Assembly: GCA_951406725.2 (NCBI GenBank)
Contig: OX597830.1
Span: 30,690,001-30,754,000, forward strand
From: Octopus vulgaris
Lineage: Eukaryota
Reading direction: 5' to 3'
Length of the DNA: 64,000 nt
A program made the translations under genes and the position numbers. The notes beneath the pieces are model-generated. The model saw only the letters and a list, made by a program, of their open reading frames with translations. It made no database searches and was not told the DNA's origin. Shown piece by piece: positions 1-62,444 of this stretch (position 1 is its first letter; each line of letters opens with the position of its first letter).

Positions 1-317
1 TAGTGATTGTAGTTTAATTAATAATGTTAGTGTTTAATCCTTCCAAAAATTAAGACTGAATGAATGTGATGATATCTAAGGTATGTTTGTTCCCAAACAA
101 CACTTATTTTGCTGCTGTTGATACCACCGGATTGAATGGTACTGTCCAGGTGTCGAAACCACACTGATATACGTGCGACAGCTGATGATGGAGCTAAGTT
201 GGATTGTTGATATGGCTGTTAATGTATGTGTGTATGTGCGGAAGAGTTTTATAACACATCCATTTGGTATATGTTTGTGTGTGTGTATGTATGTATGAAT
301 GAATGTATATATTCTTG

Positions 318-520
318 TGTTTGTGTTGGTGTCTGTGTTTGTCCCCCCAACTATCGTTTGACAACCGATGCTGGTGGGTTTACGTCCCCGTAACTAAGAT
401 GTTCGGCATACGAGACAGATAGAATAAGTACCAGGCGTACAAAGAATAAAGGCGATTCCTTTAACTAAATGGTGGTGCTCCAGCATAACCACAGTCAAAA
501 TGGCTGAAACATGTAAAATA
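318..520 (+). mobile_element. SINE family A 3' half (others: 15480-15730 -, 27790-28020 +, 48620-48815 +, 50600-50835 +)
   Basis: GACAACCGATGCTGGTG...CCCCGTAACT...GATAGAATAAGTACC...GTGCTCCAGCAT. Confidence 0.8.
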
Positions 521-1426
521 ATGTATATATATTTATACGCATGTGTGTGTATGTATATATATATATATATATGTTTGTGTGTGAATCTCTCTCTCTCTCT
601 CTGTGCCTGTCTCTCTCTCTCTCTCTCTCTCTCTCTGCCTGTCTCTCTCTCTATATATATACATATGTATAAATATATGTTTGTATGTATGTGTGTCTCT
701 GTGTGCATACTTTCATGTATATATCTATGTATAAACTTATATATCCATTACATGAACATATTTAACTACAGAGGGAGTGAAGTCAGAGAGAGTGAGGGTG
801 CCAGAGATATATAAACATACATACACATGCATTTGTGTTGGTGTGTGCATATACGTGCGCGTGCGTCATATTGTATTTGTGTGTGCTTAAATACATACCT
901 ACATATATATATAATTATATATAGAGAGAGAGATGTGTGCGTGCGTATGTGTATGTATACTCACATGTAGACACACATACACACGCACGCACTTAGATTG
1001 AAAGAGAGAGAGAGAGAGAGAGAGAGAGAGAGAGAGAGAGAGAGAGAGAGCGGGCATACATTTATAAACAGACAGGCATACAGAAAACAAAATATCTTGG
1101 GAAACAAAGTACTTTCTGACATCAGATTAAAACGAAATAAAATATCTCTCGAAAAGGAACAATGAAAAAACCTATACAAAAATCAAGAATGCACACTTAC
1201 AAATAGTTTCTTCTCTGTTTAAAACATACTGCTTCTAACTGTCTAGTTTTGTTATTTACGTTGGGTCGTTTGTTGTTGCTGTTCTTGTTATTGTCATTTT
1301 ACTTTCTTTAATTTTTAAATCTAGACCCGAATTCCCCAATTGTTCGCAGAATAGTATATATATATATATATATATATATATATATATATATATATATATA
1401 CGTGTGTGTGTGTGTGTATATATAAC

Positions 1427-1610
1427 TGTTGGCGATTTTTTTCCTCTGTCTTCCCTTCTCTGGATCTTTCCTTCTCCTATGTTTCCGACGAAGAGCTCGA
1501 AACGTTAAACCCTCCCTCTTTCCTTCTTTCCTGAGCTTCCAATAATACTATATTTGTTCCACATCCTCGCGTTGTTGTGTTTTTTTGTGCTTTCTTGTTT
1601 GGATTAACTA
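1427..1610 (+). mobile_element. Short hammerhead-bearing repeat (PLE pLTR-like)
   Basis: Copy of 61135-61325, flanked by TA repeats. Confidence 0.75.
1481..1510 (+). ncRNA. Degenerate minimal hammerhead (family of 61189)
   Basis: GTTT-CCGACGA-AGAGCTC-GAAAC-GTT-AAAC; core mutated and stem II collapsed. Confidence 0.6.
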
Positions 1611-1982
1611 TATATATATATATATATATATGTATGCATGTATGTATGTATGTATGTATGTATGTATGTATGTATGAATACTTTTATACTTTTATTCTTT
1701 TTTTTATTTTTTTTAGTCATTTGACTGCAGTCATGCTGGAGCACTGCCTTAAAGGGTTCTAGTCGAACAAATCGAGCCCATAGCATATTTCTTCTAAGCC
1801 TAGTATTTATTCTATCGAGCTCTTTTGCCGAACTGCTAATTTACGGGGACATAAACACGCCAGCAACTGTTGTGAAGCAATGGTGGCGGGACAAAGACAC
1901 AAACACACACACACACACACACACACACACACACACACACACACACACACACGCACACACACACACACATAGATTCTTCATT

Positions 1983-60662: not shown

Positions 60663-61130
60663 TTGTACCGTCGTCAAAACAGGCTGAAAGACCAGTCAGC
60701 TGAGCCAACTCATCAGCGCCCAAACAGCTGCGCCCAAATCGTTTCTATCCTTATCCAGAGAAAGGACATTCAACAGTCACTGACAAATACGTTCCAACCA
60801 CAGGGCCTTAAACGATCTGTCTCCTCTTTCTGCTTTTTCTACTGTTACTTTGATGTTCTCTGGTTCTCAGAGACATTCCACCTCCATATATCTAATCCAG
60901 ACTCTTTTCCCCCCCTCTCTCTCTTTCTCCCTCACTCTTCCTCTTTCTCTTTCTCTTCTCTCTGCTCTTACTCGATGAAGCTGTGGTCATCCTAGGATAG
61001 TGGTCCCAGAAGTATCGTCGTGCGTACATCCGACCATGTCCACCTGTGGTCTCCATCACTGGCGGTCCTTTGCTAATCCCTTTCCATCCTCCCATATAAG
61101 AGAAAAAACATTCAAAATGTGACCGCGTGT
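60663..61130 (+). mobile_element. Penelope-like element 3' remnant
   Basis: Peptide LTNTFQPQGLKR resembles the GIY-YIG end L.T..P.GLN, followed by a CT-rich UTR. Confidence 0.5.
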
Positions 61131-61134
61131 GTAC

Positions 61135-61325
61135 CGTTGGCGATTTTTTTCCTCCGTCTTCCTTTCTCTGGATCTTTCCTTTTCCTATGTTTCTGACGAA
61201 GAGCTCCGCTCGAAACGTTAAACCCTCCTTCTTCCCTTCCTTCCAGAGCGTCCAATAATACTATATTTGTTCCACGTCCTCGCGTTGTTGTGTTTTCTCT
61301 TTGTTCATGTTTGGATTATTAACTA
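61135..61325 (+). mobile_element. Short hammerhead-bearing repeat (PLE pLTR-like)
   Basis: Strongly similar to 1427-1610; both end in (TA)n. Confidence 0.75.
61189..61223 (+). ncRNA. Minimal PLE-type hammerhead motif
   Basis: GTTT-CTGACGA-A-GAGC-TCC-GCTC-GAAAC-GTT-AAAC; stem III is the palindrome AACGTT, as in dimer-cleaving PLE hammerheads. Confidence 0.78.
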
Positions 61326-62444
61326 TATATATATATATATATATATATATATATATATATATATATATATATATATATATATAATATAGCGGTGTACGTA
61401 CACCCTTGTGCTCACCTTATAGTAGGAATGTATCTAAGTTTTGTATGACTCTTACTCTTTTATTACCCCTCTCATTCTTTTCTTTTCTCTCGCTCCCCCT
61501 CTCTCACATTTCTTCGTCCTCTTTCATTATTTCCCACTCGTTTATCTCCCTGGCATCTTTCCCTTTGTCACTGATTTTTTTCTAATCCTTCAATCCTGCC
61601 GTCCCCTACCCATTTCTCCTCTTTCCAGAATTACTGCAGAACTTTCTGGCCAGCCATGATCTTTCTTGGCCTGACTGCCGAATGTCAACATGTCTTGTGT
61701 CCATCATCCATGTTCCTGCCTTTAGGCTTTTACTTCATACCACACCAGCTCAATTTGAATCATTCTCAGTCGAAAGACGCCTGTTGTTATTTCTTGTTGT
61801 TTGTATTCATAATTCTGTACTATGTTCTCCGCTTTTTGGGGGTGGTTTTTTGTCTTTGTTGCCGTACACATTCACTAGCTGTCTTACAAAGGGGTCTAAT
61901 GCTCTTAGCTTAGACTTTTCTGAGGACAACCAGATCGAACCATCTCAAGTGTAATTGTCCGAAATGGTCGTGACTTCTTGTACCTGGCTGAAGAAAGAAA
62001 GCCATGAGTGACCCCTCTTTTTTGCCTGTCCTTCTAATTGTTTCCATTGTCCGCCTTTGTGTCGTCTATCTGTCCGAACGTTTTAATGTCCTCTACTGCG
62101 TTTTTGCTCAATATATATATATATATGCAAGTGTGTATGTATGTATATATATATATATATATATATATATATATATATATATATATATATATATATATAT
62201 ATATATGAGATTGGAGGCAATTTTCGGTATTATTTATTTACCAAGAAATTTTTTTCCAATCTCCTGTTTTGAAATGCAATTTCTCTGCAAATATTATTTT
62301 ACGGTATTTTTCAACATTTATGCATGCTTCATCTTCACACAATAACAACATATACTCACAATTATCAAGTATTTAGATACACAGATGCGCCTCACGAGGA
62401 CTCCGCCTGAATTGTAGCCCTGTCTACATATTATATACACTATA

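Follow-up and report, generated by a model that had tools for sequence, protein, structure and literature searches.

Penelope-like elements (PLEs) are a known source of hammerhead ribozymes, and a 64,000-nucleotide (nt) stretch of the Octopus vulgaris genome (GCA_951406725.2, contig OX597830.1, positions 30,690,001 to 30,754,000; hereafter the window) raises the question of which hammerhead topology, if any, is encoded by core motifs in which GAAA precedes CUGANGA. A preliminary description of the window had listed nine such sites, and all nine are found at the positions and on the strands it gave. The comparison with shuffled sequence that it had suggested, made here for the window, revealed an enrichment: GAAA-N18-30-CTGANGA matches 11 times in this sequence of 37% G+C and 31% tandem repeat, against a mean of 0.94 and a maximum of 4 in 100 dinucleotide shuffles, and a mean of 2.04 and a maximum of 6 when 500-nt blocks were shuffled. 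The GAAA-first motif is real and occurs beyond chance. Eight of the nine sites are among the 11 matches, the exception being 17269, whose core had already been recognized as decayed. The further matches at 54389, 59961 and 60745 fail the structure test outlined below and are probably chance background. A relaxed descriptor gave six extra matches, all with core mismatches; the one at 7654 lies in what we take to be a mariner-type transposase relic (7500-7860).

We compared the possible topologies of these cores. Hammerheads can be divided into the blocks S (cleavage site), G (GAAA) and C (CUGANGA), and three block orders place GAAA ahead of CUGANGA, namely GSC (type II), GCS and SGC (Eckert et al. 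2023, PMC10085705). The pairings of each order were scored on all 11 cores. The cleavage-site block is located upstream of GAAA, and the order is thus S-G-C, as in the pseudoknotted type SGC of Eckert et al. Seven of the 11 cores combine CUGANGA, GAAA, a U16.1-A15.1 pair and a residue other than G at position 17, with stems III and I of 4+5, 3+4, 5+4, 5+3, 5+5, 5+6 and 6+6 base pairs (bp). In all seven, U16.1 is positioned 15-19 nt before G12 and H17 is A, C or U. Stems I and III flanking the site are present in the window copies, in their relatives and in a metagenome family described below. When each core is left with its own upstream sequence, stems III and I pass the test in 7 of 11. The same test is passed by only 4 of 110 combinations with upstream sequences swapped between cores (all among 155, 18386 and 18800, which have stem letters in common), by 5 of 204 cores from 100 block shuffles and by none of 74 distinct viral cores containing the same two words. 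For the seven passing copies, 0-16 of 2000 per-copy shuffles matched the observed score. A viral scan with the site pattern yielded 15 loci, none with a stem I of at least 4 bp. Nested folding, which is blind to pseudoknots, returned stem III with a probability of 0.88-0.99 in three sequences. The earlier caveat that the stems are not convincingly paired can thus be refined: the stems exist, and their partners lie upstream of GAAA.

A metagenome scan covering 17 of 64 parts gave 119 loci. Among 134 viral and metagenome matches, 33 have a stem I of at least 4 bp, and 32 of these represent one repeat family with two subfamilies, close to the published end of Naiad_Amil, a PLE of the Naiad group. 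In locus L029 the motif follows about 280 nt after the end of a Naiad-type open reading frame (ORF). This ORF end is 65% identical to P0028, in which a GIY-YIG domain is located at 91-133 (below the Pfam cutoff) and DKA and reverse transcriptase (RT) motifs are visible. Homologues of the L029 ORF include a 953-residue protein with an N-terminal GIY-YIG and a C-terminal RT domain; both domains score below Pfam cutoffs across the four homologues scanned, and a Pfam scan of the L029 fragment itself gave no match. We aligned 29 of 42 full-length loci, leaving out 13 with insertions, deletions or truncations (L049, L061, L062, L066, L081, L083, L084, L091, L095, L103, L119, L123 and L130). In this alignment 7 bp connect the strand that precedes GAAA with a strand (a) located 5' of the motif, beyond the site block. 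This upstream stem II strand directly abuts one side of a 9-bp clamp (b/b'). Still further upstream lies strand e, the partner of the bases after A9, with a hairpin separating it from a. Altogether 93.4% of cells pair, compared with 27-45% in slid controls. Double changes occur in e, b and stem I; b/b' is 93.9% paired, with one double change. The G10.1-C11.1 pair is formed with the upstream strand in 26 of 29 copies and with downstream sequence in 0 of 29. For a stem II built from downstream sequence, 28.4% of cells are paired. The copies thus show the block order and clamp of type SGC, with an intact block C in 0 of 29.

We next turn to the elements themselves. The retroelement 3' ends proposed in the preliminary description are PLE 3' ends: window positions 1-276 match, by eye, the consensi Naiad_Ovul and Naiad_Obim at their 3' ends, and Naiad_Ovul is flagged HHR_half_core by Craig et al. 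2021 (PMC8557442). Comparing by eye the last 300-350 nt of 53 of the 54 Naiad consensi (supplement File S5 of that paper), which makes our counts lower bounds, we found the fold in at least nine of 54: Naiad_Obim and Naiad_Ovul from octopus, Naiad_Amil, Naiad_Aacu and Naiad_Anas from coral, Naiad_Bfor from a comb jelly, Naiad_Plae from an acanthocephalan, Naiad-3_Chem and Naiad-2_Movir. These nine span six lineages and four phyla, and their stems differ. Stem II, for example, reads GACACC/GGTGTC, GGCTCC/GGAGCC, GGGGAG/TTCCCC or GGCCCC/GGGGCC, always with G-C first. In Naiad_Bfor stem I has only 2 bp. In Naiad-2_Movir and Naiad-3_Chem, helix e and the hairpin were found in sequence that was seen only after the prediction had been noted. 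The octopus Naiad has the weakest helix e (4 bp), and a 2-bp downstream stem II is still possible there. Five of the nine (Obim, Amil, Aacu, Anas and Plae) carry no HHR flag in PMC8557442. A rewired hammerhead-type fold at PLE 3' ends is real and conserved.

Within the window, tblastn searches with five Naiad-type proteins gave no match, and neither an RT remnant nor an ORF is present; all window copies are thus truncated ends. They represent 5'-truncated 3' ends (the pseudo-long terminal repeat region) of several PLE families, at least one of them a Naiad. The linkage to PLE RT/GIY-YIG ORFs envisaged earlier appears at metagenome locus L029, with its Naiad-type ORF end upstream of the motif, and not, by tblastn, in the window. 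The T-rich and (TA)n tails that had been noted are a consistent feature, as a microsatellite begins 126-184 nt past the predicted cut in all seven structured copies, with (TA)n in four.

Judged from order and pairing, the source elements of several PLE families likely carried a rewired hammerhead at their 3' ends, with e, hairpin P, a and b placed in front. From 5' to 3' this RNA would consist of e, P, a (the stem II strand, with G10.1 first), b, c (the stem III strand, ending in U16.1) and H17, followed by d (stem I), a short linker, a' (ending in C11.1), GAAA, c', b', d', CUGANGA and e'. Stems I, II and III, together with clamp b/b' between stems I and II, would be those of type SGC, with the a-b segment shifted from behind CUGANGA to the front. 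Helix e/e' and hairpin P would fill the A9/G10.1 position, where minimal hammerheads of PLEs have one bulged base. The arrangement would thus be a circular permutation of SGC, its chain opened inside the CUGANGA block between A9 and G10.1. The RNA is predicted to adopt this fold and to cut after H17, and it may do so as a monomer, as stem III has 4-13 bp and a palindromic loop would not be needed. A cut 126-184 nt before the element end could process partial-tandem or read-through transcripts, a role that type I hammerheads are proposed to have in other PLE clades. We further lean, with less assurance, towards an active, monomeric seventh hammerhead permutation, opened within CUGANGA, which would be old and widespread in Naiads from comb jellies to octopus.

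The most complete window copy is 22127 (21962-22213, minus strand), which ends in a T-rich tail. Here, e is located at 22213-22207, the hairpin at 22206-22172, a at about 22170-22164, b at 22165-22159, H17 at 22144 (AUA), stem I at 22143-22138/22103-22098, GAAA at 22127-22124, CUGAUGA at 22097-22091 and e' at 22090-22084; its stems III and I were equalled in 2 of 2000 shuffles. Copy 46155 (45990-46234, minus strand), a relative of the 22127 family with different stems, ends in (TA)n and contains e at 46234-46230, the hairpin at 46229-46197, H17 at 46170 (GUU), GAAA at 46155-46152 and CUGAUGA at 46125-46119. Its stems III and I comprise 5+5 Watson-Crick bp (0 of 2000 shuffles), and its strand a is decayed. 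An inverted, 5'-truncated arm with 96% identity to this element (46249-46409, plus strand) is joined to it between (TA)n runs and retains only CUGAUGA (46273) and the tail, reproducing the PLE layout of an inverted truncated arm and (TA)n targets described in PMC8557442. Copy 61961 (61878-62110, plus strand), again ending in (TA)n, has e at 61878-61885, the hairpin at 61887-61922, a at 61924-61929, H17 at 61944 (AUC), a' at 61955-61960, GAAA at 61961, CUGAAGA at 61988-61994 and e' at 61995-62002 (stems III and I, 14 of 2000 shuffles). In each of these three copies, 0 of 150 shuffles reached the score of the composite e-hairpin-a-b. The Naiad copy 155 (1-276, plus strand) contains the hairpin at 96-119, a at 120-125, b at 128-132, U16.1 at 140, H17 at 141 (GUA), stem I at 142-146/177-181, a' at 149-154, GAAA at 155-158 and CUGAUGA at 182-188, with stems III and I of 4+5 bp equalled in 1 of 2000 shuffles.

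The remaining copies are less complete. Copy 11630 (11502-11665, minus strand) has a 6-bp stem III, H17 at 11647 (AUC), a 6-bp stem I, b/b' at 11662-11656/11616-11610, GAAA at 11630-11627 and CUGAAGA at 11601-11595. Its stems III and I were matched in 0 and its a+b pairing in 4 of 2000 shuffles; a search for helix e and the hairpin in this copy found neither, and it is apparently truncated 5' of strand a. Copy 21398 (21366-21512, plus strand) is cut on its 5' side by a microsatellite and contains H17 at 21382 (AUC), stems III and I of 5 and 4 bp (6 of 2000 shuffles), GAAA at 21398 and CUGAUGA at 21428-21434; its outer helices are unsupported. Copy 18800 (18596-18860, plus strand) is worn, with H17 at 18782 (GUC), stems III and I of 3 and 4 bp (16 of 2000 shuffles), GAAA at 18800 and CUGAUGA at 18825-18831, and has neither a usable stem II nor detectable outer helices. 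All three look truncated or worn. A decayed paralogue at 18386 (18186-18417, plus strand) has a degenerate site block and fails the stem test (1288 of 2000 shuffles reach its score), and 17269 (17250-17307, plus strand) is a decayed member of the 18800 family with the core TTGATGC, its site block lost. Most genomic copies are probably decayed and inactive. The shared flanks reported previously are present, with GTTGTTAAATG upstream of 17269, 18386, 18800 and 22127 and TGACCC downstream of 11601, 21428 and 61988. The last C of TGACCC, at 21448, is mostly T in related copies, and TGACCC is therefore not a conserved element. The G10.1-C11.1 pair is closed by the upstream strand in 155, 11630 and 61961 and is decayed or ambiguous in 18800, 21398, 22127 and 46155; the clamp b/b' is present in 11630, 22127 and 46155. 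A stem II strand directly after CUGANGA is absent in 18800 and 61961 and requires 5 nt to be looped out in 11630. When upstream regions were swapped, a copy's own region scored top in five of six rows, with one tie (61961 with a foreign region).

Relatives of the window copies allowed us to follow individual pairs. Contigs from four public runs were aligned on 21345-22270, their depth not being equivalent to copy number. Among the variants listed, the majority letter at 22100 converts a G-U pair in stem I to G-C (97% of depth in X18), those at 21423 and 21424 turn stem I of copy 21398 into five Watson-Crick pairs, and that at 22158 lengthens b of copy 22127. In a loose-end subfamily consensus (agreement 0.62-0.68), two stem III pairs are changed on both sides. 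Copies 46155 and 22127 can be aligned over about 280 nt, and one of five stem III pairs and four of five stem I pairs differ between them with pairing kept. Sequence order, complementarity and compensatory differences are thus directly observed, as is the Naiad linkage for two families. As a separate observation, summed contig depth drops just upstream of the predicted cut (22150) and at the start of helix e (22213) in all four runs; contigs cannot establish RNA ends.

How else could these motifs be explained? That two short words meet by chance in repeat tails would account for the three of 11 matches that look like background, about one or two being expected. For the seven structured copies it is refuted by the enrichment, the stem tests, the swap, shuffle and viral controls and the independence of the families, and chance as a general explanation is very improbable. 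Hardly more credible is a type II (GSC) fold, or type GCS. The preliminary description had considered a type II-like or otherwise rearranged motif, and only the second half of this proposal stands. GAAA does precede CUGANGA, and in 18386 a 6-bp hairpin directly follows GAAA, but stem I would have 0-2 bp in all 11 cores, and 21-26 nt are too short to hold two hairpins. In 22127 and 46155, type GCS finds 3+5 and 3+6 bp within the U-rich tails, some of them G-U, yet it scores lower than SGC in both copies.

A plain type SGC hammerhead would form stem II from the G-rich bases after CUGANGA, with one bulge, and a and e would then belong to an alternative or inhibitory fold. Such a downstream stem II could have 4 bp, two of them G-U, in each of 22127 and 46155, 4 bp past a 5-nt gap in 11630 and just 2 bp in 155, and natural hammerheads often have a stem II of only 2 bp (Perreault et al. 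2011, PMC3088659). However, it cannot provide G10.1-C11.1 in any of the 29 metagenome copies, and is impossible in 61961 and, by eye, in Naiad-2_Movir, Naiad-3_Chem, Naiad_Bfor and Naiad_Plae. In addition, clamp strand b directly adjoins the upstream a, as one would expect of neighbours if a were the stem II strand. We regard this possibility as improbable. The fold may also be genuine and conserved and not cut itself, serving instead as a scaffold for binding or priming by the Naiad protein, or depending on a protein to fold. In vitro, cleavage by minimal PLE hammerheads is poor (Cervera and de la Pena 2014, PMC4209133), SGC ribozymes act slowly and other HRIMA candidates assayed did not cleave (PMC10085705), nested folds compete, and the chain exit at A9/G10.1 is a putative arrangement. 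Yet the catalytic positions, G10.1-C11.1, A15.1-U16.1 and a residue other than G at 17 are kept, by eye, over six lineages with differing stems, and an element with a structural role alone would have no need of a cleavable NUH. A non-cleaving scaffold thus appears unlikely.

Several points weigh against the rewired, self-cleaving hammerhead that we prefer. The pass threshold for the stems was chosen after the SGC, GSC and GCS scores had been viewed, and the published consensi were judged by eye only. Nested folding gives stem III a probability of 0.00-0.14 in 155, 22127 and 61961, where it prefers different structures. The metagenome alignment represents two lineages only, and its core and 4 bp of stem III were imposed by the search pattern. 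It has three double-changed pairs, none of them in stem II, no more than the 3.7 that shuffles give on average. In the window, the composite outer architecture is unsupported in four of seven copies (19 of 150 shuffles in 155; 40-89 of 150 in 11630, 18800 and 21398), helix e on its own is mostly not significant (reached by 97 of 1000 shuffles in 22127 and by 794 of 1000 in 46155), the margins of the swap test are small (0-3.5 points), and 155, 22127 and 46155 could also form a downstream stem II of 2-4 bp that leaves one base bulged. In the relatives, the majority change at 22165 breaks the a/a' register of the window unless 22167 also changes; the latter is found at 41-81% of depth and is not phased with 22165. 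Finally, five window families have neither an ORF nor an assigned clade, copy 155 being the only one tied to Naiad.

We compared the proposed fold to other hammerheads. Type SGC, represented by HRIMA-1 and variants, has the same order of site, GAAA and CUGANGA, a pseudoknotted core, a short linker joining the stem I and II strands, and a clamp of stems I and II that sometimes abuts stem III (PMC10085705). In contrast to our copies, where it lies at the 5' end, the stem II strand there directly follows CUGANGA, a block assumed to be uninterruptible in SGC and taken as unbreakable in the six-type hammerhead scheme; the extra helix and hairpin at A9/G10.1 are a further difference. Its SGC sequences came from metatranscriptome contigs bearing hairpin ribozymes and from RefSeq and metagenome searches, and its supplement contains no Acropora, Octopus or Metazoa, with Penelope in reference titles only. 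The minimal type I hammerhead of metazoan PLEs resembles our copies in its core, its location near the element 3' end and an insertion between positions 9 and 10.1 (PMC4209133). It differs in having type I order, CUGANGA before GAAA, almost no stem III and dimer dependence, whereas our copies have a long stem III, S-G-C order and as insertion a helix junction that holds the RNA ends. Type II with pseudoknot likewise places GAAA before CUGANGA and has a Watson-Crick clamp of stems I and II, but the site and both hairpins lie between the two words (PMC3088659), unlike here. At gathering score, Rfam 15 gave no matches in the window and four loci, and raising E to 10 brought up no ribozyme family; for the whole window at E up to 5, the 150 of 565 matches listed are only microRNA families, driven by microsatellites. 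Craig et al. reported Naiads to be without canonical hammerheads, with some cores that misfit stem descriptors, and the consulted part of their paper proposes no fold for HHR_core or HHR_half_core. Full-text searches found type SGC in Eckert et al. 2023 only, and a fold for the Naiad cores nowhere, though subscription journals may hold a precedent for the 9/10.1 helix. PMC13725137 mentions hammerhead variants with additional helices and refers for them to Weinberg 2015, Eckert 2023 and Forgia 2023; in the last of these, a term search returned nothing on this fold.

Other features of the window and of the Naiads were recorded alongside. The type I order is likewise enriched in the window (15 matches against 2.57 expected), and part of these matches are ordinary PLE hammerheads. 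Ends of this kind are found at 61193-61219, 1425-1574 and 50428-50469 (plus strand) and 11831-11854 (minus strand), the homologue at 1425 having CCGACGA and a stem II that has collapsed; this genome contains both orders side by side. In eight nematode Naiads (Nbra-1/2/3, Hcon, Hpol, Asuum, Ppac and Parc) the hammerhead is of type I order and its stem II is long and interrupted, a form that short-spacer descriptors would overlook. Bivalve and hemichordate Naiads (CGi, Sglo, Olur, Tgra, Pmar, Skow-1/2 and Pfla-1/2) have in common a G+C-rich 3' motif without hammerhead core, which may represent another ribozyme class. The squid element Naiad_Esco has the order site, CUGAUGA, GAAA; its stem III is good and a helix directly follows A9, but its stem I partner is displaced. 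Several arthropod Naiads have CCCCTGA(A/C)GA in common; these may be further rearrangements. Elsewhere in the window, an inverted duplication (36553-37271/38887-39598) has 100% identical unmasked blocks and is either recent or an assembly artefact. Two abundant short interspersed repeat families of 70-95% identity are located at 1981-2346 (about a dozen homologues) and 2344-2560 (about eight).

The proposed fold would explain why Naiads seemed to be without the usual ribozyme. The non-circularly permuted SGC order has so far been reported from environmental sequence only; if our reading is true, non-circularly permuted hammerheads occur in animal genomes at high copy number, in a topology that neither Rfam models nor today's descriptors can detect. 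The idea that Naiads have spread without hammerheads, which has served as an argument that hammerheads may be mere parasites of PLEs, would also be overturned. Naiads would then switch ribozymes at one position, alternating between this fold, the long-stem type I hammerhead of nematodes and the further motif of bivalves and hemichordates. A monomeric, long-stemmed form with a predicted cut makes the role of the ribozyme in PLEs directly testable, unlike the slow dimeric minimal forms.

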